From a virus, in the IMG/VR virus record IMGVR_UViG_3300019132_000012, positions 1 to 64,000 of that record: a stretch of DNA of 64,000 bases. One strand, 5' to 3'. Every line of letters starts with the position of its first letter. Within the stretch, counting starts at the first letter, position 1. The notes under the pieces are model-generated. The model did no database searches and had not been told where the DNA came from. It saw nothing but the letters and a program-made list of their open reading frames with translations. The translations under genes were made by a program, and so were the position numbers. Below are positions 58 through 37,982 of this stretch, in pieces.

Positions 58-1248
58 CTATCCTGTTGATTTTCGTTGATTTTCCGCTTCGTCCTCAATT
101 GTGGTGTGGCTTGTGGTGTGACCTGGTGCATCGGCGTGAGCACCGCTGCCGCTTCCGGCGGCCACGCCCGCCTCGATCCCGGCCAGCACATCCTCATCCA
201 GGACATGCGCGTACCGCATGGTGGTGGCGATATCCTCGTGACGTAATACCGTCTGCACAACCTTCAGATTCTTGCTGCCCCGCAGGATGCGGGTGGCCGC
301 CGTATGACGCAGATCGTGGAAGCGGAAATCGAGGATTTTTGCAGTCTCGCGTTTGCGTCGAAACGTGGTCTTCAAACCCTCGTAGGTAATCGGATAGCGC
401 TGTCCGGCGATGCGGCGCTCGCCGATCTTCGGGATCGTGCGGGTGCGCTCGGCGATATAGGTGAACACGAATTCGGCGTGATGCCCGCGCAGCGGCCAGA
501 GAATGTCCCGCATGCTGGGCGCGAGCGGAATCGGCGCCCGCTTGTTGCCCTTGCCGGTGATCCAGACACGGCGATTGCCGAAATCGACGTCGCTCCAGCG
601 CAGCGAGCAGGCCTCGTCGAGGCGCAGACCGGCCACGATGCAGAAGCGGATGATCGGATGGTAGTCCGCCCGCAGGGCCGTAAAGAGGCGCTCTTCCTCG
701 TCGCCGTGCAGCTCGCGGGTTCGCTCCTTCGGCTCGTCGCGCAGCAGCTCCTTCCAGACGATCTTGCCGTGCGGCTGGTCGTGGACCTCGGCCGCATAGC
801 GCAGGATCCGCCTGAGCGGCTCGGTCACCGTCCGGTTGAGCGTCGCGTCCGAGACCCGCGTCCCTGCCTTCTTGCCGGGATCCTGGGCCCGCCTGGCGAT
901 CAGCTTGGCCACGAAGCCGGTGGTAATCTCGCGCAGCGGCGTGTCGTTGCCGACCTCCTTCTGCAGCCAGGTGAAGATCCCCTTGGTGTTGGCGTCGAAC
1001 TCGCCGTCGAGCCGCTCCTTGAAATACGCGGTCGCGGCCTGACCGAAGGTCCAGGGGGCACCGTTGGTCTCTCGCAGCCGCTTGATCTCCTCGCGGGCTT
1101 TCTCCTTCTCGCGGGCTTCTACCCGTTTGGCCGCCCGTTCCGACGTTTCACCTGTATTGCCTGAAAATCGACGACCCCCGAGTTCAAAGCTGTAGGAGTA
1201 CGTTTCCGCTTTTTTGCCGTTCCTTCCGGTTTTCCGGTAGACTGCCAT
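58..1248 (-). CDS. int: Tyrosine-type phage integrase
   Basis: 396 aa ORF. C-terminus has HDLRHTAATRILR ... LRHEDIATTMRYAHV (tyrosine-recombinase H-x-x-R and catalytic Tyr boxes). It abuts the tRNA fragment. Confidence 0.9.
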   Translation of the reverse strand: MAVYRKTGRNGKKAETYSYSFELGGRRFSGNTGETSERAAKRVEAREKEKAREEIKRLRETNGAPWTFGQAATAYFKERLDGEFDANTKGIFTWLQKEVGNDTPLREITTGFVAKLIARRAQDPGKKAGTRVSDATLNRTVTEPLRRILRYAAEVHDQPHGKIVWKELLRDEPKERTRELHGDEEERLFTALRADYHPIIRFCIVAGLRLDEACSLRWSDVDFGNRRVWITGKGNKRAPIPLAPSMRDILWPLRGHHAEFVFTYIAERTRTIPKIGERRIAGQRYPITYEGLKTTFRRKRETAKILDFRFHDLRHTAATRILRGSKNLKVVQTVLRHEDIATTMRYAHVLDEDVLAGIEAGVAAGSGSGAHADAPGHTTSHTTIEDEAENQRKSTG

Positions 1249-1780: not shown

Positions 1781-2229
1781 GACTCTCCCTTGGCGTAGGT
1801 GAGAACCTTGCGGCAGTAAGCCGAGCGGACGGCGCGGGCGTAGATCCCCCGGTTGTAGAGGGTCGCCGCGCCGCACCAGTCGCCGTCTGCCCTGTCGAGG
1901 GCCAGCGCCAGGTAGCGCATCCCAGCCTCGACGCCGGTCCTGCAGTCCTTGAGATTGCCGTGGATGCCGACGCCTCGGGCCGTGCGGGGCAGCACCTGCA
2001 TGGCTCCGGTGGCGTTGGATGAGCGATTGACGGCCTTGCAGTCGTAGCCGCTCTCGACCTTGACGACCCCATGGGCGAGCGCCACGGGGACGCCGTGCTT
2101 CCTGGCCTTCTCGGTCACGATTGCGCGGACGTCGGGTTTCGGATTTGCATTCACAGCGTTCGTATGCGCTTGATTGCAAGCAACGAGCAAGAGCGAGATC
2201 GCTCCCACAGCGATGGATTGGAGTCTCAA
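1777..2229 (-). CDS. Lytic transglycosylase (SLT domain) lipoprotein
   Basis: Signal peptide with lipobox LLLVAC. VKVESGYD ... ATGAMQV matches the SLT catalytic Glu-Ser and GxMQ motifs. TTG start preceded by AGGAAG. Confidence 0.75.
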   Translation of the reverse strand: MRLQSIAVGAISLLLVACNQAHTNAVNANPKPDVRAIVTEKARKHGVPVALAHGVVKVESGYDCKAVNRSSNATGAMQVLPRTARGVGIHGNLKDCRTGVEAGMRYLALALDRADGDWCGAATLYNRGIYARAVRSAYCRKVLTYAKGES

Positions 2230-2332
2230 AATGTAACTTCCTGCGGTTCAGATCAGGCCCCGGTCGTGCGGTAACCCCACACGACCGAAGCGATGAAGAG
2301 GATCGCAAGGATCCAGGCGATCCACTCCGGCA

Positions 2333-3733
2333 TCACACGGCGACCGGCGCCGAGATGCGTTCGTGGGACTCGTAGCCGACGAGCACGACGTCGTCGGCGG
2401 TGATGGTGTCGATGGTGAAGGGGCGCTTGGCGAAGCCGATGCGCGGCAGACGGAGCGGCTCGCGGTTGAGCTGCTGTTTCACCTGCACCATGTGGTTGTT
2501 GTAGATGTGCCCGTCGCCGATGGTGTGGACGAACTCACCGGCCTGCAGACCTGTCAGCCGAGCGATGATCTCGGTGAGCAGGGCATACGAGGCGATGTTG
2601 AACGGCACGCCCAGGAAGGCATCGGCCGAGCGCTGATAGAGCTGGCACGACAGCTTGCCGTTGGCGACGTAGAACTGGAACATCATGTGGCAGGGCGGCA
2701 GCGCCATCTTGTCGACTTCGGCCGGGTTCCAGGCCGAGACGACAAGGCGGCGGCTGTCGGGATTGCGCTTGATCTCCTCGATCACCCACTTGAGCTGATC
2801 ATAGGTCGATCCATCAACACCGTGCCACGAGCGCCATTGAGCCCCATACACTCGACCCAGATCACCATCCTCAATCAACTCCAGACGAGGCAGATAATCT
2901 GGAACGTCCAGTTCAGTGAACTCCCATCCCGCAAAAGACTTGTTGTTGCCCTTGAGGGTGGACGGAACGCCTTCCTTCACGAAACGACTCAAGGTCGATG
3001 TCGGCATGCCGATGCGACGGGATGCTTCGGCTTGGCTCAGATAGAGGCGCTTGATGCCGTCACCATCCACAACGCTGACGGGCTTGGCCGACTTCGTGTA
3101 GAGATTGTTCTCGTCTGTGCGGAGCCAGACCGATGTCTCGGGACCATACTGACGGGAGCCGTAATAGTCCTTGTCCAGCTCGAACTCGTCCCAGTTCTTC
3201 TGCTTGTACCACCAGTGAGGGATCTTCTTCACGCCCTCGATAAAGGCGCGGGGATCATGCCATGACGGATGAACCGACACACCATTTGCTCCATAGAGAT
3301 CGAAACGGTGATAGTTTTCATCGTAGCAGCGCCGCATCATACGGACCCAGGTATCTGCGAGCTTACGATCTTCGCCTTCCGGTAGGTTCAGACCGGCATA
3401 GCTGAAATCACCCGTATAAGGGGCGTATTCGGCCTCCTTTGGCGTAACCCACACCATGTTGCGGTCGAAGTTGTACGGACGACGCCACTCGTCCCAGATC
3501 GTGACGCCGTTGTCGTTCAGGTACTTGATGTTGGTGTCGCCGCGCAGGAACCAGATCAGCTCGTGCAGGATCGATTTGAAATGCACCTTCTTCGTGGTGA
3601 CCAGCGGAAATCCCTTCGAGAGGTCAAAGCGCATCTGGTAGCCGAAGATCGATCTCGTGCCGGTGCCGGTGCGATCAGACTTGTCGACGCCGTTGACGAG
3701 GATGTGCTGTAGAAAATCGTGATACTGCTTCAT
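2333..3733 (-). CDS. thyA: Thymidylate synthase ThyA with an in-frame insertion of about 206 aa
   Basis: MKQYHDFLQHIL..DRTGTGT..IWDEW then, after the insert, GDLGRVYGAQWRSW..SAWNPAEVDKMALPPCH..YQRSADAFLGVPFNIASYALL..GDGHIYNNH. These are all canonical ThyA blocks. Start taken at MKQYHD; the 98 aa upstream extension in the track looks like shadow sequence. Confidence 0.9.
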   Translation of the reverse strand: MKQYHDFLQHILVNGVDKSDRTGTGTRSIFGYQMRFDLSKGFPLVTTKKVHFKSILHELIWFLRGDTNIKYLNDNGVTIWDEWRRPYNFDRNMVWVTPKEAEYAPYTGDFSYAGLNLPEGEDRKLADTWVRMMRRCYDENYHRFDLYGANGVSVHPSWHDPRAFIEGVKKIPHWWYKQKNWDEFELDKDYYGSRQYGPETSVWLRTDENNLYTKSAKPVSVVDGDGIKRLYLSQAEASRRIGMPTSTLSRFVKEGVPSTLKGNNKSFAGWEFTELDVPDYLPRLELIEDGDLGRVYGAQWRSWHGVDGSTYDQLKWVIEEIKRNPDSRRLVVSAWNPAEVDKMALPPCHMMFQFYVANGKLSCQLYQRSADAFLGVPFNIASYALLTEIIARLTGLQAGEFVHTIGDGHIYNNHMVQVKQQLNREPLRLPRIGFAKRPFTIDTITADDVVLVGYESHERISAPVAV

Positions 3734-4119
3734 GCGGTTGGATCCGTCAGGGTTCCGAGGTTGAGGAACACGTCGGCAGGGCCGTCGTATTCGATGTGCG
3801 TGATGAAGGAACGGCGCACGAAGGGCATGAAGGCCCGGTAGGTCTTGGCGCCGCCTGCGATCCAGATGTCCCGCTTGGGGTCCATCTCGGTGAGGGTCTT
3901 GATCAGCCCTTCGGGATCGATGTCCCGGCGCCAGCCGACGAGGAGTCGGCCTTCGAGGGAAGGGACATGGGATAGGGTGTTGCCACCCATGATCACGAAG
4001 CCGTTCATGGTCATTTTCTTGAACCACTTCAGGTCTTCGGCATCATGCCAGGGCAGCTTGCCCATCAGCCCGAGCTGGCCCGACTTCCCGACCGCTGCGA
4101 TCAGGTTGACGCTGCCCAT
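3730..4119 (-). CDS. folA: Dihydrofolate reductase (short form, 129 aa)
   Basis: VNLIAAVGKSGQLGLMGKLPWHDAEDLKWFKKMTMNGFVIMGGNT matches the DHFR IGxxGxLPW / MGrkT pattern. Overlaps the thyA start (ATGA-type coupling). Confidence 0.8.
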   Translation of the reverse strand: MGSVNLIAAVGKSGQLGLMGKLPWHDAEDLKWFKKMTMNGFVIMGGNTLSHVPSLEGRLLVGWRRDIDPEGLIKTLTEMDPKRDIWIAGGAKTYRAFMPFVRRSFITHIEYDGPADVFLNLGTLTDPTA

Positions 4120-4400
4120 CAGGCAGCTTCCTTGATGGATCGGAGCGAGAAGAATCCGTCGTATTGTGGATTGTTCTGCATCCAGAGCCGTGCGTAATAG
4201 GCGGTGTAGTGATCGTTGATCTTGAACTGCCGGTCGGTCGTGACGACAGAGGTTTCCCACCGGATCCGATGCAGGATCGCGTCGGAGGAAAATCGCTTGT
4301 AGCCCCGCCTGATCACCTCTCGGGTGAAACGGTCGAACAGCTCGTAGACCTGCGGATTGTCAGCATGGAACTGCTGAAATCTTTGCTCGATCTCGTTCAT
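4119..4400 (-). CDS. Hypothetical protein (93 aa)
   Basis: Internal start MNEIEQRFQQFH. TGATG coupling to the DHFR gene. Protein-like composition, unlike the upstream part of the track ORF. Confidence 0.6.
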   Translation of the reverse strand: MNEIEQRFQQFHADNPQVYELFDRFTREVIRRGYKRFSSDAILHRIRWETSVVTTDRQFKINDHYTAYYARLWMQNNPQYDGFFSLRSIKEAA

Positions 4401-4891
4401 TTGCGTTTGTCCTTTTGAATTCGCGCAAGTGCTTCGAGGAGTTTTTCCTTGGCTTTTTCCTTCCAGCGTCGAGCCGTCAGCTCGGCCAGTCGTTCGACCG
4501 TGTAGTCGGTCATGCCGTCTGGAAATTCGTCGCCGAAGAGCCTCGTGGCGATACTCTGACGGTCCAACTCGACGTAGGCGACGACCTCTCGGCTCATGGT
4601 CATGGGATTGTCGCTGAAGTAGGCTCTGGCCAGAATGTCGGGGATGCCGATGCGCTTGGCATCGTTCTGGAGGTAGTTGTCCAGCTCCCGCTCCATATGG
4701 AGAACGGCCTCCCGCATCTCCATGACGCGGATGCCTCGGGCTGCGACCTCGTCGAGGGCGGCGTGGTAGCGCCACCGCATGACAAAGGGCCAATGTCGGT
4801 TGAACCAATCCTCAACCGGCTTGATCAGCCTGACGCCCAGATCCGTGGTCCATTCGGTGTAGAACCGCATGGTTCTCCGGGTGAGGGTCAT
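4397..4891 (-). CDS. Hypothetical protein (164 aa)
   Basis: ORF with normal composition. ATG overlaps the stop of the upstream gene. Confidence 0.6.
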   Translation of the reverse strand: MTLTRRTMRFYTEWTTDLGVRLIKPVEDWFNRHWPFVMRWRYHAALDEVAARGIRVMEMREAVLHMERELDNYLQNDAKRIGIPDILARAYFSDNPMTMSREVVAYVELDRQSIATRLFGDEFPDGMTDYTVERLAELTARRWKEKAKEKLLEALARIQKDKRK

Positions 4892-8550: not shown

Positions 8551-11500
8551 CTACGAGCAGCCGGTCGTCTCGCCGCACGTCATGCACTTGTTGCAGGTGC
8601 CGTTCCTCACGAGCGTGAAGTTCGAGCAATTCGTGCAGGCGTCCCCGGTGTAGCCCTTCAGCTTCGCCTCGGCTCGCGCATCAGGCTTGACAGCTTCCGC
8701 GACGAACTTCGACACCGCTGCAGGCTCCGGAGCGTTGACCACGAGATCAACCTTCACGGGGAAGGGGATCGTCTCGGCGGCCGGAGCCTTGCCTTCCGCC
8801 AGACCGCCGCCGACCGAAGTCGAGAGCGTCTCTGCCGGAACGTGGGCCAGGTCTTCGCGGTCGAGGTAGTTGATTGCGAGATCCCGGAAGACGAAGTCGA
8901 TGATCGACGTCGCGCTCTTCAAGCGGTCGTGGCCCTGGACGAAGCCGGAGGGCTCGAACTTGAAGAAGGTGAACGCATCGACGAACTCATCGAGCGGCAC
9001 GCCGTGCTGCAGGCCGAGGCTCACAGCGATGGCAAACGCATTCATCATCGACCGGAAGGCCGCGCCTTCCTTGTGCATGTCGATGAAGATCTCGCCGAGT
9101 CTGCCATCCGGGTAGTTGCCGGTGCGCAGGTAGACCTTGTGGCCGCCGACGACTGCCTTCTGGGTGTAGCCCATACGCTTGGCCGGGAGCTTCTCACGCT
9201 GCCGCACGAGTTTCTCGACGATCTGCACGACCTGGGCGGTCGGGGTCGCGGCCGGAGCCTCATCCTCGTCCTCCTCATCGTCCTCGACCAGGGCCGCATT
9301 GAGCGGCTGCGAGAGCTTGGAGCCGTCGCGGTAGAGAGCATTGGCCTTCAGCGCCAGCTTCCAGGACAGGAGGTAGGCCTCCTTGATGTCCTCGACGGTG
9401 GCGTTGTTGGGCATGTTGATCGTCTTGGAGATCGCACCCGACAGGAACGGCTGGCAGGCCGCCATCATGCGGATATGTGCCTCGGTCGAGATGAACTGCT
9501 TGCCCTTCTTGCCGCAGGGATTGGCGCAGTTGAACACCGGGTAGTGCTCCGGCTTGAGGTACGGAGCACCCTCGATGGTCATCGTGCCGACGCAGTAGTC
9601 GTTGGCCCGCTCGATCTCTTCCTTGCTGAAGCCCTTTGAGGCCCAGTCGGCCAGGAACGAGATGTCGAAGGCGGTCTCGACCTGTGGCATCACCGTCTTG
9701 AATTCCTCGTCCGACAGTGCGGCGACGAAGGAATCCGGCAGGCGGCGGTGACCCGTCGCATAGCGCACGATCTCGTCGATCTGACCATCAGAATAGCCGA
9801 GGGCTTTCAGTGCCGGAGGCACCGACTGGTTGATGATCTTGAAGTAGCCGCCACCGGCCAGCTTCTTGAGCTTCACCAGCGCGAAGTCCGGCTCGACACC
9901 CGTCGTGTCGCAGTCCATGACGAGGCCGATGGTGCCCGTGGGAGCCAGGACCGTCGTCTGGGCATTGCGGTAGCCGTACTCCTCCCCCAGGGCCAGAGCG
10001 CGATCCCATGCCTCTTCCGCGTGGTCGGAGAGGTCGGAATAGGCTTCCGGGATGCCGTCGTGATCGAGCGGAACCGGCTTGATCGAGAGACCGACATAGC
10101 CGTCTTTCCAGCCGTAGGCGGCCTCGCGGTGGTTGCTGATCACCCGGAGCATCGACTCTCGGTTCTCCGCGAATTTCGGGAACGGTCCCAGCTCCCGTGC
10201 CATCTCGGCCGACGTGGCATAAGCCGTGCCGGTCATGATCGCAGTGAGAGCCCCGGCGATGGCGCGGCCCTCGCGGCTGTCATAGGGGATGCCCATGGTC
10301 ATCAGCAGGCCGCCGATGTTGGCATAACCCAGACCCAGAGTCCGGTAGTCATAGGACAGCTGTGCGATCTTCTCGGACGGGAACTGCGCCATGTAAACCG
10401 AGATCTCCAGGACGATGGTCCAGAGGCGGTTGACATGGATATAGCCCTCGACGTCGAACTCCTTCGTGTCCTTGTCGTAGAACTTCAGCAGGTTCGAGGA
10501 CGCCAGGTTGCAGGCCGTATCGTCGAGGAACATGTACTCGGAGCAGGGGTTGGAGCCCCGGATCCGGCCACCGGCAGGGCAGGTGTGCCAGTCGTTCATC
10601 GTCGTATTGAAGTGCAGGCCAGGATCGGCCGACTGCCAGGCGGCATAGGCGATCTTGTCCCACAGGGCGCGGGCCTTGACGGTCTTCGTGAACGACTTGT
10701 CGACGCGGCCGGTCAGCGTCCAGTCCTCGTCGTTCTCGACGGCCTTGAGGAAGGCGTCGGTGAGAGACACGGAGTTGTTGCTGTTCTGGCCGGATACCGT
10801 CTCGTAAGCCTTCGACTGCCAGTCGGTGTCGTAGACCTCCGTGGTGAAGGGCTGGCCCTGCTCAGCCAGCATGATGACGCGCTGGATGTAGTTCTCCGGG
10901 ATCATGGCCTTCTTGGCAGCCTTGATCGCCTTCTTGAGTTCTTTCCCGGTCTCGTAGGCAGGCCATTCCGGGTTGTTGGCCGCGACTGCCGCGTCATAGA
11001 CATTCGCCAGATGCTTCGCCATGATCTTGGAGCCGGTCACGAGCGCCGCGACCTTCTGCTCCTCGATCACCTTCCAATCGATGAAGGCCTCGACGTCGGG
11101 GTGGTCGATGTCGACGATCACCATCTTCGCCGCACGGCGCGTCGTACCGCCCGACTTGATCGCGCCAGCGGCGCGGTCGCCGATCTTCAGGAACGAGAGC
11201 AAGCCCGATGACTTGCCGCCGCCCGAGAGACGCTCACCTTCGCCTCGGATGTCGGAGAAGTTGGAGCCGGTGCCGGAGCCGTACTTGAACAGGCGAGCCT
11301 CGTTCGTCCAGAGGTCCATGATGCCACCAGGATTGACCAGGTCATCGCCGACCGACTGGATGAAGCAGGCATGCGGCTGCGGACGCTCGTAGGCCGAGGT
11401 CGAGCGGACCACCATCTGCTTGGCTTCGTCGTAGTAGAAGTGACCCTGGGCGGGGCCGTCGATGCCGTAGGCCCAGTGCAGGCCGGTGTTGAACCATTGC

Positions 11501-11964
11501 GGGGAGTTCGGCGCCACCATCTGGTTGGCGAGCATAAACCGCAGCTCGTCGAAGAAGGCGCGGGCCTGATCTTCAGCGATGCGTGCATCCTTATCGGGAT
11601 TGGCGAAATACCCGCCCTTCCAGCCCCAGTATGTCCAGGCCCCGGCCAGGCGGTCGAACACCTGCTTGGCGGACATCTCGGGTCCGGTGAACACGCCCTC
11701 GACGGCGGCAACGGAGCGTTGCAGCCATTCCGGCACCCCTTCCTCGGCGACCTTGCGCAGCTCGGCTGGGACACCGGCCTTGCGGAAATACTTCTGAGCC
11801 AGAACGTCGGTGGCCACCTGCGACCAGTTCGCGGGCACCTCGATGTTCTCCATCTTGAAAACCGAGGATCCGTCCGTGTTACGGATCTCGGACGTGGCCA
11901 TCTTCCAATCCAGCAGCTCGTAGGGGTCGCGGCCCGCGATGGTATAGCGGCGTTCAATCTTCAC
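8551..11964 (-). CDS. nrdJ: Class II (adenosylcobalamin-dependent) ribonucleotide reductase
   Basis: 1137 aa. Blocks such as [25 protein letters not shown] and the C-terminal Cys-rich tail [28 protein letters not shown] are typical of monomeric NrdJ. Confidence 0.9.
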
Positions 11965-35828: not shown

Positions 35829-37982
35829 TTAGGCTCCGATGATGATGGGCTCCTGGGCGTCCTCCACGGCCTGGGCCGCCTGCTCCCGTTCTTCGCAGGC
35901 GAGAAGCCGGAAGTATTCGTTCAGAGCCGTCTGACGCTTGTTCTTGGTGTCGTAGCCATAGCCGTAGTGATGATCGGCGATCACCCGGAACAGCGGGTAC
36001 TTCTTGATCATCGCTTGGTACTTGTCATTGATCGCCTGCGTCGGGCTCGGGAAGGTCGGCTCCTGGACGGTGTGACCGATCATCTTCAACGCCTCGATGG
36101 CGCGGTCGGTGTCGGTCCGCGTGTAGGTGCCGCGCTGCAGCCGCTCGATGATCGGCATGACCTCCTCCTTGAAGGCCTTCATCGGGGCAGGAGCCTGCGT
36201 CAGGTCGTATTCCCTGACGAACTGCCGGACGTGGGCATCGAGACTCGACTCGGTGCGGCCGTAGAACTCGTCGCGGGTGGAGAAGTCTACCTTCGCCTCG
36301 ATCAGCGGCTTGAGCTTGTCGGCAATGAACGTCCAGCCTCCGGTGAGAACATCCTTCTCCTGTTTGATCAGGATCTCGGTATCCTCCGGGAGCACCTTCA
36401 GTTCCGCCGCCAGCTTGAGGAAGCGCTCCATCGTGCCTTGCGACACGCGGATGCCCCGACCGATGAACCAGTTGGCATCGTACTTGCCATGGCCATATTC
36501 GGTGTCGCGGTAGACATAGAAGCCACCGCCAGCCAGATCGACATCCTCGGCCTCGATGTGCATGCCGTACTGAGTGGCCGTGATGGTCCGGCGCTTGCGC
36601 ACGGTCTTCGCCCGCTTCTCGGTCGGAGACTTCTTCTCCAGCTTGAAGTCGTCGAGTGTGATGTATCCGGCCGGATTGCCGATCTGGGTCAGGACGCTCG
36701 CCAGATCGTCGCGCTTGACGCGGATCCAGAGGAATCTCTCGTCGTCGAGTCCGGCCGCCGCGAGGCGTTCCTTCGAGCGGTACGGGTTATGCTCGATGGC
36801 GATCTTGAAGCCCTCCAGGGTACGGAAATCGACCTTGCCGCCCTCAAACTTCTCGACGCTCCTGCCGCCATGGCTGACCTTCATCATCTTGGCGTGCAGC
36901 AGCTCCGCGCCCGCCGCTCGCAGATGCAGGCCACGCCACTTGATCTGCGAATGCAGCCAGTCCTGGCGCCACTGACCGAGATTGCCGGTCTCGTCATAAA
37001 AGATCCTGCAGGCCGCGAAGTAACTGTCGGCCGCTTGGACCTTGGCGCGGATCTGTTCCAGGTTTGACGTCTCGTACTGCCGCACCAGACGCTCCAGCGT
37101 TGCCTTCGTGCGCTCGTCATAGGCCAGGGCCTCGCGGGAGAGCGTCACGGAGAGCGATCCGATGGGGGCCTCGAACAGCACCGCATCATCCTCGTTGAGC
37201 ATCTGCGAGCCCTGGATCTGACGCAGATCGAAGGGATACATCACCGGACCCAGTTGCACATGCGGCCCGTCGAACGGCACCGTGTGAGCGTGATAGCGCG
37301 TCCAGCCCTCGCCTTTCATGTACACTTTGGGCTCGCCCCATTCGATCTCCGGGAAGACCTTCGGGCGCGGATGGAACGACCAGTAGATCTCCTTTGCCCG
37401 ATGGTGGAAGGCGTAGATGTCGTTGCGCGACACTGAGAACGACACCTCGACGCCGGTCTCCTCGTCCGTATCCTCCTCGTGGATCATGCGGAGCTTCGGC
37501 TTACCGGCCTGATCGAGCGACATCGTCCAGATCCGTTTCTTGCCCTCGGACCAGGTCGTGATCGTGAACATGCCGGTGCCGCTCTCGCCGATCAGGTAGG
37601 CGAAGGGCGACATCTTGCCCAGGCCCCAGCCACCGGCCTCTTTGTCGGACAAGCGCTTGGTCGAGGCATAGAGACGAGAATAGACGTCCTCCATGACCTG
37701 CTTGGTCATGCTGTGGCCGTAGTCACGGATGCGGAAAGTCGGGTTGAGGTTGGTCGGCAGGAAGATACGGGGCACCTTGTCCTCGGGCACCTCGTCGCCG
37801 AAGCGGGCCACCGAGGCGTCCCAGGCATTGGTGGCGAGTTCCCGGATCGGGTAGCCGATCTTGTCCTTCGCCAGGCCTGACATCTGGGCAAAGAAGGCAA
37901 CGCCGTTGGCCTCGATGGTGACGTCGATTTCGTCCATCACGCCAGCGGTGATGTCGGTGTGTTCGCGCAGGGCGAGTTTCAT
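35829..37982 (-). CDS. GHKL (Bergerat-fold) ATPase, RIIA-like (717 aa)
   Basis: IRELATNAWDAS (N box), IRDYGHSMT (G1-like) and GGWGLGKMSPF (G2-like). The size and N-terminal ATPase resemble phage RIIA-type proteins. Confidence 0.6.
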   Translation of the reverse strand: MKLALREHTDITAGVMDEIDVTIEANGVAFFAQMSGLAKDKIGYPIRELATNAWDASVARFGDEVPEDKVPRIFLPTNLNPTFRIRDYGHSMTKQVMEDVYSRLYASTKRLSDKEAGGWGLGKMSPFAYLIGESGTGMFTITTWSEGKKRIWTMSLDQAGKPKLRMIHEEDTDEETGVEVSFSVSRNDIYAFHHRAKEIYWSFHPRPKVFPEIEWGEPKVYMKGEGWTRYHAHTVPFDGPHVQLGPVMYPFDLRQIQGSQMLNEDDAVLFEAPIGSLSVTLSREALAYDERTKATLERLVRQYETSNLEQIRAKVQAADSYFAACRIFYDETGNLGQWRQDWLHSQIKWRGLHLRAAGAELLHAKMMKVSHGGRSVEKFEGGKVDFRTLEGFKIAIEHNPYRSKERLAAAGLDDERFLWIRVKRDDLASVLTQIGNPAGYITLDDFKLEKKSPTEKRAKTVRKRRTITATQYGMHIEAEDVDLAGGGFYVYRDTEYGHGKYDANWFIGRGIRVSQGTMERFLKLAAELKVLPEDTEILIKQEKDVLTGGWTFIADKLKPLIEAKVDFSTRDEFYGRTESSLDAHVRQFVREYDLTQAPAPMKAFKEEVMPIIERLQRGTYTRTDTDRAIEALKMIGHTVQEPTFPSPTQAINDKYQAMIKKYPLFRVIADHHYGYGYDTKNKRQTALNEYFRLLACEEREQAAQAVEDAQEPIIIGA

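Follow-up and report, generated by a model that had tools for sequence, protein, structure and literature searches.

A homing-endonuclease-type module in frame within a phage thymidylate synthase gene, and its probable mobility

The thyA gene and its in-frame insert

The stretch analysed here (the window) comprises 64,000 nucleotides (nt) of viral DNA, positions 1 to 64,000 of IMG/VR record IMGVR_UViG_3300019132_000012. On its minus strand lies a thymidylate synthase gene, thyA, which runs from an ATG at 3733 to a stop codon at 2333-2335 and encodes 466 amino acids (aa). Between the conserved ThyA blocks IWDEW and GDLGRVYGAQW the gene carries an insert of 618 nt (206 aa), in frame and free of stop codons (Table 1). 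These boundaries, together with the colinearity of the remainder with ordinary ThyA, had been proposed in a preliminary description made from the sequence alone, and were matched exactly by the open reading frame (ORF), by Pfam and by the alignments. The Pfam model Thymidylat_synt (PF00303) aligned to residues 2-466 over its full length (profile positions 1-266 of 266, E 5.6e-115) with one large interruption, and a custom ThyA hidden Markov model covered positions 1-84 and 86-264, flanking the insert on both sides. In the alignment to E. coli-type ThyA (264-aa chains in the PDB), query residues 288-466 corresponded to chain residues 86-264, with four residues at the position of the insert; the closest insert-less relative has only 'ADEN' there.

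The ThyA part of the protein appears intact. R21, E58, W80, W83, R328/R329, C348, H349, R368, S369, D371, N379, H409 and Y411, which include the catalytic Cys and the catalytic and substrate-binding (dUMP/folate) positions, are unchanged across insert-bearing and insert-less sequences. An AlphaFold2 (AF2) model of the whole protein, built with an alignment of homologues as input, had a predicted local distance difference test score (pLDDT) of 90 and a predicted template modelling score (pTM) of 0.81. Its ThyA core superposed on E. coli ThyA structures with a template modelling (TM) score of 0.95 and a root-mean-square deviation of 1.7 Å, and the insert is therefore predicted to be a separate domain, placed on a ThyA surface loop as the preliminary description had considered.

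The claim that the insert is noticeably less GC-rich than its flanks held in part. In total GC it equals the N-terminal exon (0.550 in both; 0.629 in the C-terminal exon), but at third codon positions (GC3) it is clearly lower, at 0.665 relative to 0.855 and 0.848 in the two exons. The low-GC3 stretch extends about 20 codons beyond the 3' junction, to about aa 310. Across the viral loci, insert GC3 was below core GC3 in 19 of 20, yet it tracks the GC of the genome. An assembly artefact was ruled out, as a 109-kb contig already in the records encodes the identical protein and a homologous insert is present in more than 150 independent ThyA sequences.

Table 1. Features of the thyA locus and of other genes in the window, with positions in the window
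Feature	Position	Strand	Remarks
thyA coding sequence with in-frame insert	2333..3733	-	466 aa plus stop; sole thyA in window
ThyA N-terminal segment	3485..3733	-	aa 1-83; ends IWDEW (residue 83, position 3485)
Insert: homing-endonuclease-like module at ThyA site 1	2867..3484	-	206 aa; aa 84-289
Lead-in R-x-P-Y...R and first beta strand (MVWV), then linker	3374..3484	-	insert, aa 84-120
WxxMMxRCY...YG.xGV.V...W...F subdomain and LPHWxYK	3185..3373	-	insert, aa 121-183
Beta-beta-alpha element FELDKDYYG..YGPETSVWLRTDENN	3098..3184	-	insert, aa 184-212
I-HmuI/NUMOD-type beta-hairpin and helix-turn-helix DNA-binding domain	2909..3088	-	insert, aa 216-275
Closing beta strand (PRLELIED), chain back to ThyA	2867..2899	-	insert, aa 279-289
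Probable co-converted exon tract just 3' of insert	2735..2866	-	aa 290-333
ThyA C-terminal segment	2336..2866	-	aa 290-466; begins GDLGRVYGAQW (residue 290, position 2866)
Dihydrofolate reductase gene, directly upstream of thyA	3730..4119	-	PHROG 316, E 1.4e-29
Tyrosine integrase	58-1248		
Class II (B12) ribonucleotide reductase	8551-11964		1137 aa, TSCPD domain
rIIA-like protein	35829-37982		

The window is phage DNA, with genes for an integrase, a class II ribonucleotide reductase, a primase/helicase, a rIIA-like protein and a lytic transglycosylase; the integrase, the reductase and the rIIA-like gene together suggest that the phage is temperate and has an extensive set of genes for nucleotide metabolism. 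Neither another thyA nor a credible thyX, which could make the interrupted gene dispensable, was found in the window, nor was any paralogue of the inserted module or any homing-endonuclease-like gene adjoining thyA. The stop codon of the dihydrofolate reductase (DHFR) gene overlaps the thyA start (ATGA; 3731-3733), which suggests translational coupling. The likely DHFR start codon, an ATG at 4119, is preceded by an AAGGAAG ribosome-binding site, and the GTG of a longer DHFR ORF reaching 4260 is probably not the true start. The 1,137-aa reductase was considered as a carrier of a similar insert and rejected, since it proved to be a class II B12 enzyme of the usual kind, which includes a TSCPD domain. 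A 300-aa antisense ORF (2363-3265, plus strand) across thyA and the insert matched no family and is in all likelihood an artefact of high GC.

Identity and distribution of the module

Searched on its own (aa 84-289), the insert proved similar to families named as endonucleases. It matched phrog_2081 ('HNH endonuclease') at E 5.1e-29, a partial match in the middle of the family (insert residues 38-194 to profile positions 101-253 of 433). An AF2 model of the insert alone had a pLDDT of 92.9, and its best Foldseek match in the PDB was the HNH homing endonuclease I-HmuI (1u3e; E 6e-4, probability 1.0, 109 columns), with the DNA-binding domain of I-TevI also among the matches. Against viral models (BFVD) Foldseek gave 122 matches at E<=1e-3, many named homing or HNH endonuclease and two being viral ThyA proteins with the same insert. 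The helix-turn-helix (HTH), earlier described as NUMOD/IENR-like, was borne out by a profile match to residues 109-170 of I-HmuI (1u3e) and by an hhalign probability of 93% against the I-HmuI C-terminal domain (the C-terminal part of the I-HmuI sequence used in hhalign agrees with the printed alignment). Pfam gave weak HTH matches only on the insert, and I-HmuI_NUMOD-like matches in the homologues P0171 and P0176; NCBIfam returned nothing useful for the module. The label 'AP2-type' had to be dropped, since no match to Pfam AP2 (PF00847) was obtained at E<=1 and the region is predicted to be mainly helical.

According to a published survey, PHROG 2081 proteins are encoded within group I introns that interrupt the DNA polymerase genes of Bastillevirinae, and the only domains that InterPro finds in them are DNA-binding (PMC11878797). 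Bacillus phage Moonbeam gp117 and Staphylococcus phage Stau2 ORF84, both located between DNA polymerase fragments, share the order WxxxxxRCY...LDKD...EN...HTH with the insert. The core of the preliminary description, an in-frame, non-intein ThyA insertion derived from a homing-endonuclease DNA-binding module and possibly mobile, is supported by the PHROG 2081, I-HmuI and HTH matches, and further by the insert-less alleles of close relatives and the lack of intein and intron signatures described below. The term 'DNA-binding module' is correct for the HTH but too narrow for the whole, as the insert corresponds to an entire protein type of about 200 aa that occurs free-standing or encoded in introns.

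Five parts can be told apart in the module (Table 1). In the lead-in, insert residue R8 is invariant in the alignments and the first strand is modelled at E93-96; the segment is also present in free-standing homologues such as P0144. In the following subdomain, predicted to be mostly helical, L42, W46, R52, C53, Y54, G65, V71, W75 and K94 (insert numbering) are invariant; it matches PHROG 2081, 953, 374 and 3377 and is without a match to any Pfam model. Both motifs quoted in the preliminary description were found, WVRMMRRCY at aa 129 and LSQAEASRRIG at aa 232. In the closing strand (E281-284 in the model) R283 is nearly invariant, and an equivalent strand ends the free-standing proteins.

The beta-beta-alpha element, modelled as strands 184-187 and 202-205 and a helix at 206-212, has a spacing reminiscent of an HNH motif (Asp-His ending strand 1, Asn in the helix), with Lys in place of His. 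Among ThyA-embedded modules the motif DKD...N/Q is conserved as D in 160 of 160, K in 158, D in 159 and N/Q in 157. The position of the catalytic His is thus occupied by Lys in 158 of 160 embedded modules, and by Lys or Arg in the free-standing relatives; no His was seen. The near-invariance of the motif across these sequences indicates strong selection on the element. A PDB profile search with the beta-beta-alpha region found no HNH protein, and in hhalign against I-HmuI the HTH part alone aligned and the element did not. Homology of the element to the HNH motif is suggested by its topology and by the Foldseek match.

The module is widespread in thymidylate synthases. With the insert alone as query, a collection of 5.8 billion proteins returned ThyA proteins exclusively, and with the whole protein about 25 full-length ThyA (460-507 aa) with the same insert were recovered at 50-64% identity. 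When 1.84 billion cluster representatives were searched exhaustively with the profile, 80,288 matched at E<=1e-3 and 173 at E<=1e-30, and most of the best 150 were ThyA with the module at one of two loops. Site 1, occupied in the window, corresponds to ThyA profile position 84-86; site 2, about 20 residues downstream at positions ~103-108, between QWRxW and IDQI, is occupied by a related sub-lineage of the module. Altogether the module was found in frame in more than 150 ThyA clusters, with length and motifs conserved. The remaining best matches include genes that stand alone and encode, in about 200 aa, nothing beyond the module, such as P0144 in a non-thyA context, and a truly free-standing homologue of 202 aa was found.

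About 20 viral ThyA loci in IMG/VR carry the module. Seven cellular ThyA loci in GTDB do so, all at site 2: Calidithermus chliarophilus, Demequina iriomotensis, Fictibacillus nanhaiensis, and metagenome-assembled genomes (MAGs) of Meiothermus, Promineifilaceae, Blastocatellia and Thaumarchaeota. In Calidithermus chliarophilus the gene lies in a chromosomal thyA-folA operon among housekeeping genes, and the Thaumarchaeota case is a contig binned to that MAG (L091, 2314-3945). Carriers among phage isolates in GenBank are Enterococcus phages vB_EfaM_A2 and 163, Bacillus phages Kioshi and 015DV002, and Tenacibaculum phages PTm1 and PTm5; their genes are annotated merely as 'thymidylate synthase' or 'HNH endonuclease'. 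The protein of vB_EfaM_A2 is gp68 (QNL31136.1).

Several related arrangements were noted in these searches. In many site-2 inserts the module is preceded by a further beta-rich domain, about 100 aa in length (P0171, residues 106-211; P0092; Kioshi gp41, L099 1844-3490), which is also present in the free-standing relatives P0169 and P0229 and has no Pfam identification. One phage ORF (P0173; L092, 3001-3924) consists of a 29-aa N-terminal fragment of DHFR, the beta-rich domain and the module, and ends just before an intact DHFR gene (3941-4441), with an insert-less thyA 800 bp upstream; this resembles a case in which the element entered the 5' end of frd and the target was duplicated. In another (P0160; L094, 3001-4089) the module is fused N-terminally to an RNase T-type exonuclease, within a phage nucleotide-metabolism cluster that also has an insert-less thyA. 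The 437-aa protein P0129 (L093, 3001-4314) contains the module with the 'PYTLTR' lead-in typical of site-1 ThyA inserts between unrelated, Pfam-less N- and C-terminal parts, and adjoins a type I restriction-modification system on a 328-kb contig. On the contig of the closest insert-bearing ThyA (P0007, from a T4-like phage MAG), the strand opposite to thyA has an ORF for a TnsA-like endonuclease some 500 bp downstream of that gene (L095, 2110-2571). Lineage-specific extras of other kinds also occur in ThyA loops (P0004, P0022, P0031 and the thyA genes of L101 and L103): a 15-aa expansion at site 2 in P0031, a 45-aa expansion at site 2 in insert-less Schiekvirus ThyA that is absent from the insert-bearing alleles, and insertions of 35-45 aa between FQFY and LSCQ in P0004 and P0022.

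Gene conversion, selection and probable retention of the insert

The preliminary description had raised the existence of insert-less alleles in related genomes as a point to be checked, and such alleles were found for the window, for Schiekvirus phages and for Meiothermus. Over 264 core columns the window ThyA is 84% identical to the insert-less P0031, the contig of which is syntenic with the window; it is about 70% identical to many other insert-less ThyA and at most 68% to any insert-bearing ThyA. Relative to the insert-less allele L001, the N-terminal segment has 87% nt identity, rising to 98% in the 20 codons before the junction. After the insert, identity is 62-73% for about 40 codons and then 83-92%. 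The per-region protein identity profile dips in the same tract, and the low-GC3 tail agrees with it.

Similar patterns were seen in cultured phages and in bacterial chromosomes. Among the Enterococcus Schiekvirus phages the insert is present in 2 of 32. Phages A2 and Ben are 95-100% identical up to the insertion point, where 698 nt in A2 replace 185 nt in Ben; past the insert, identity climbs through 70, 80, 88 and 95 to 100% over about 240 nt and stays near 100% for more than 1 kb. When the alleles of Calidithermus and of the Meiothermus MAG (L085 and L086) were compared, the distal exon ends had synonymous divergences (dS) of 0.56 and 0.48 (73% nt identity), the 41 codons before the insert a dS of 0.00 (99%), the insert 0.19 (93%) and the 110 codons after it 0.17 (93%). 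The Meiothermus allele is 83-93% identical to insert-less Meiothermus ThyA, but only 64-72% in the regions flanking the insert, where pairs of insert-less Meiothermus alleles are 90-100% identical. With inserts excised before the ThyA cores were aligned, and a neighbour-joining tree used as supporting evidence only, the cores of the two site classes interleave, whereas for most inserts (51 of 55 and 56 of 67) the nearest neighbour is an insert at the same site.

Occupied alleles with a foreign tract of flanking exon, set beside insert-less close relatives, are the signature of homing-type gene conversion. These allele comparisons show transfer of the insert between thyA alleles by gene conversion, with co-conversion of the flanks, chiefly on the 3' side. 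Of the three options offered in the preliminary description, a still-mobile in-frame insertion is the one favoured by the polymorphism and the co-conversion tracts.

Selection on the module bears on two other explanations. In the comparison of Calidithermus with Meiothermus the ratio of nonsynonymous to synonymous divergence (dN/dS) of the insert was about 0.22, the same as in the adjacent exon. In a long-diverged pair of syntenic phages (P0013 and P0014), in which dS was saturated and dN alone could be compared, dN was 0.152 in the insert and 0.162-0.171 in the ThyA exons. Because of this low ratio and of the equality of insert and exon dN, the module is under purifying selection and not a decaying passenger; what is selected is either its own propagation or a benefit to the host. 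Such constraint is hard to reconcile with a defunct endonuclease relic that binds its target only and is mobilised in trans when other nucleases cut near thyA; decay would be expected of a dead relic, and this module is as constrained as ThyA, with a near-invariant motif. The missing catalytic His would fit a relic, as would the clustering of module relatives and other endonuclease-like ORFs near nucleotide-metabolism genes, and trans-homing has a precedent in T4, where mobE reportedly promotes homing of the defunct I-TevIII. On the other hand, the window has no homing-endonuclease-like gene next to thyA and no module paralogue, and no further nuclease domain is present in those relatives that reside in introns and share the motif, so that mobilisation of a relic in trans is regarded as improbable.

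The same constraint is compatible with a domesticated DNA-binding domain derived from a homing endonuclease gene (HEG), kept for the benefit of host or phage and spread by ordinary recombination or whole-gene transfer. Its possible roles would be regulation of thyA-folA through DNA or RNA binding, for which the repression by I-TevI of its own promoter is a parallel, or the tethering of dTMP synthesis to replicating DNA. Domestication would agree with the equality of insert and ThyA dN over long vertical descent, the housekeeping thyA-folA operon of Calidithermus, the conservation of length and motifs across more than 150 clusters, the absence of the catalytic His and of a sequence link to HNH motifs, and the finding of DNA-binding domains only in PHROG 2081 proteins by InterPro (PMC11878797). 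It would account poorly for cultured phages that are almost identical yet differ in the presence of the insert, where junctions are sharp and co-conversion is graded, and for a patchy spread over six phyla and many phage groups. Moreover, the same type of protein occupies group I introns and free-standing HEG niches, its near-invariant acidic/Lys/Asn cluster is placed like a metal-dependent active site, and most ThyA, the nearest relatives included, do well without the module. Domestication is considered unlikely, though a DNA-binding role of benefit to the host, the third option of the preliminary description, is conceivable.

Whether the insert is removed by splicing was judged from its ends and its contents. 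An Rfam scan of window positions 2000-4500 at E<=1 gave no group I or group II intron match, only a chance miRNA match, and the module profile (positions 1-207) takes up all 206 aa of the insert, so that a ribozyme could not be accommodated. Pfam at E<=1 showed neither a Hint nor an intein domain, and the structural matches were to DNA-binding proteins of the endonuclease kind and not to Hint folds. The junctions W|R and D|G lack intein signatures, as had been reported: the first insert residue is variable (R/Q/A/T/S/M), and at +1, directly after the insert, an invariant Gly offers no splicing nucleophile. Free-standing homologues start and stop at the same strands as the insert. A self-splicing element, either an unconventional intein or a translated in-frame intron that would leave a canonical mature ThyA, would fit the in-frame position at a conserved site of a conserved enzyme and the sporadic distribution, both as in inteins and introns, and phage td/thyA genes are classic intron hosts. 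With no Hint domain, no intron match at permissive thresholds, a Gly at +1, all 618 nt coding for a conserved and confidently folded domain, and ends shared with free-standing proteins, the 'unconventional splicing element' of the preliminary description is argued against and is very improbable.

The insert is more readily read as staying in a functional ThyA, since the catalytic residues are invariant and ThyA of the Lactobacillus casei type has an extra domain at site 1 (residue 139 of 1lca aligns where E. coli residue 86 does); both the alignments and the models are consistent with this. The lack of another thyA in the window, the place of the Calidithermus gene in a chromosomal operon and the occurrence of the insert in cultured phages also speak for retention. 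All homology of the insert is in the host frame. A hidden out-of-frame endonuclease like that of the ShiLan domain (see below) was looked for and rejected, the alternative-frame ORFs at 2363-3265 (plus strand) and 3060-3212 (minus strand) being without a Pfam match.

Interpretation and comparison with known systems

With a probability of roughly 0.7, the insert is a mobile homing-endonuclease-type gene that lies in frame in thyA, is spliced neither at the RNA nor at the protein level and spreads itself by homing. The 618-nt segment encodes a complete module of about 200 aa, like those of free-standing phage genes and of ORFs in DNA-polymerase group I introns. Its first and last beta strands probably bring the ends together, so that a separate domain hangs from a permissive surface loop while the ThyA core, with all catalytic residues kept, presumably retains activity. 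The element moves between thyA alleles by homologous gene conversion with flanking exon, mostly on the 3' side. Conversion would probably begin with binding of the module to empty thyA alleles, followed by nicking or cutting through the Asp-Lys-Asp...Asn/Gln centre, probably at a site 3' of the insertion point; more speculatively, dimerisation of ThyA may pair two modules.

Several points weigh against this interpretation. With a His-less centre that has no sequence link to HNH, the module could be DNA-binding only, its transfer being due to general recombination or to a different nuclease in trans. A host-beneficial domain would explain equally well the long vertical co-descent under strong constraint and the housekeeping operon. 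The divergence of the window from L001 in the 3' tract is inflated by a 15-aa loop expansion of L001's own, the neighbour-joining tree of ThyA cores is without support values, and the sample of insert-less ThyA is biased towards relatives of the query. The full-length protein, its ThyA activity and DNA cutting are what we infer from sequence and models.

A narrower and more tentative proposal, which we hold to be possible though on balance doubtful, is that the module is an active nuclease of an unrecognised His-less (Asp-Lys-Asp...Asn/Gln) branch of beta-beta-alpha-metal enzymes and represents a third route for HEGs into essential genes. Residence would then take the form of a permanent folded domain in a permissive loop, without intron or intein. 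ThyA is an obligate homodimer and would pair two nicking modules, which could turn a nickase into a double-strand cutter, and the approximately 80,000 detectable relatives would be a large pool of uncharacterised site-specific nucleases.

HEGs are thought to survive in essential genes only through self-splicing introns, inteins or gene splitting. Here, a protein of homing-endonuclease type appears to be translated within a conserved metabolic enzyme and to stay there, with the genetic footprints of homing. A very large family annotated 'HNH endonuclease' but without the catalytic His is a possible new nuclease family, and public records that name such genes plain 'thymidylate synthase' or 'HNH endonuclease' present an annotation problem. 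For protein engineering, ThyA loops appear to accept a DNA-binding domain of 200 aa. Pairs of cultured phages, vB_EfaM_A2 or 163 against Ben or EFDG1, allow direct tests. In the literature searched, which was incomplete, no prior description of a ThyA with an endonuclease-like insert was found, and an earlier one may exist.

Among known systems, the 'small domain' of Lactobacillus casei ThyA (about 50 aa) occupies the same loop between IWDEW and GDLG, which indicates that the loop tolerates insertions; it is, however, about four times shorter, unrelated in sequence, without DNA-binding or endonuclease features, and fixed in its lineage. I-TevI in T4 td and I-BmoI in Bacillus mojavensis thyA share with the insert the target gene, the use of ThyA-coding DNA as a landing site, and co-conversion, but they are GIY-YIG enzymes encoded in group I introns elsewhere in the gene, and the host is restored by RNA splicing. 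Inteins are likewise in frame in conserved enzymes, translated with the host, often HEG-bearing and sporadic in distribution, whereas the ThyA insert has no Hint domain, junction nucleophiles or His-Asn and is expected to remain in the mature protein. In the 'genes in pieces' of Aeh1 (nrdA split by mobE) and in the bypass of T4 gene 60 with mobA, HEGs also lie in coding sequence for nucleotide metabolism without a self-splicing carrier; the products there are separate pieces or depend on ribosomal bypass, while the ThyA insert is part of a single polypeptide, the intruder being a domain.

I-HmuI and the PHROG 2081 proteins are the best structural and family matches and share the C-terminal NUMOD-like HTH with the insert. 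Unlike the ThyA insert, they are translated alone, from reading frames placed within self-splicing group I introns or intergenically. I-HmuI, which we take from its published structure to have a canonical Asp-His...Asn centre, differs in this from the Asp-Lys of the insert.

The closest published analogue is the ShiLan domain (Arsenault, Gosselin and Gogarten 2025), an in-frame, stop-free insertion in mycobacteriophage DNA methylase genes that has no intein or intron features and was inferred to be actively homing; it is predicted to stay in the host protein as a loop excursion and is sporadic among close relatives (PMC11855218). The ThyA insert shares the in-frame, stop-free, non-splicing and sporadic traits. 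In ShiLan, a canonical HNH is encoded in another frame and the in-frame product is a featureless hairpin, whereas the ThyA insert uses the host frame and is a folded, His-less domain. The host gene of ShiLan is dispensable; the ThyA insert lies in a conserved metabolic enzyme (the sole thyA of the window), occurs in two loops and has a much wider reach, which extends to an archaeal MAG, six phyla of bacteria and a large number of phage groups. Taken together, the two systems suggest that living in a tolerant loop without splicing is a general and overlooked strategy, which in the present case is widespread and reaches bacterial chromosomal thyA.

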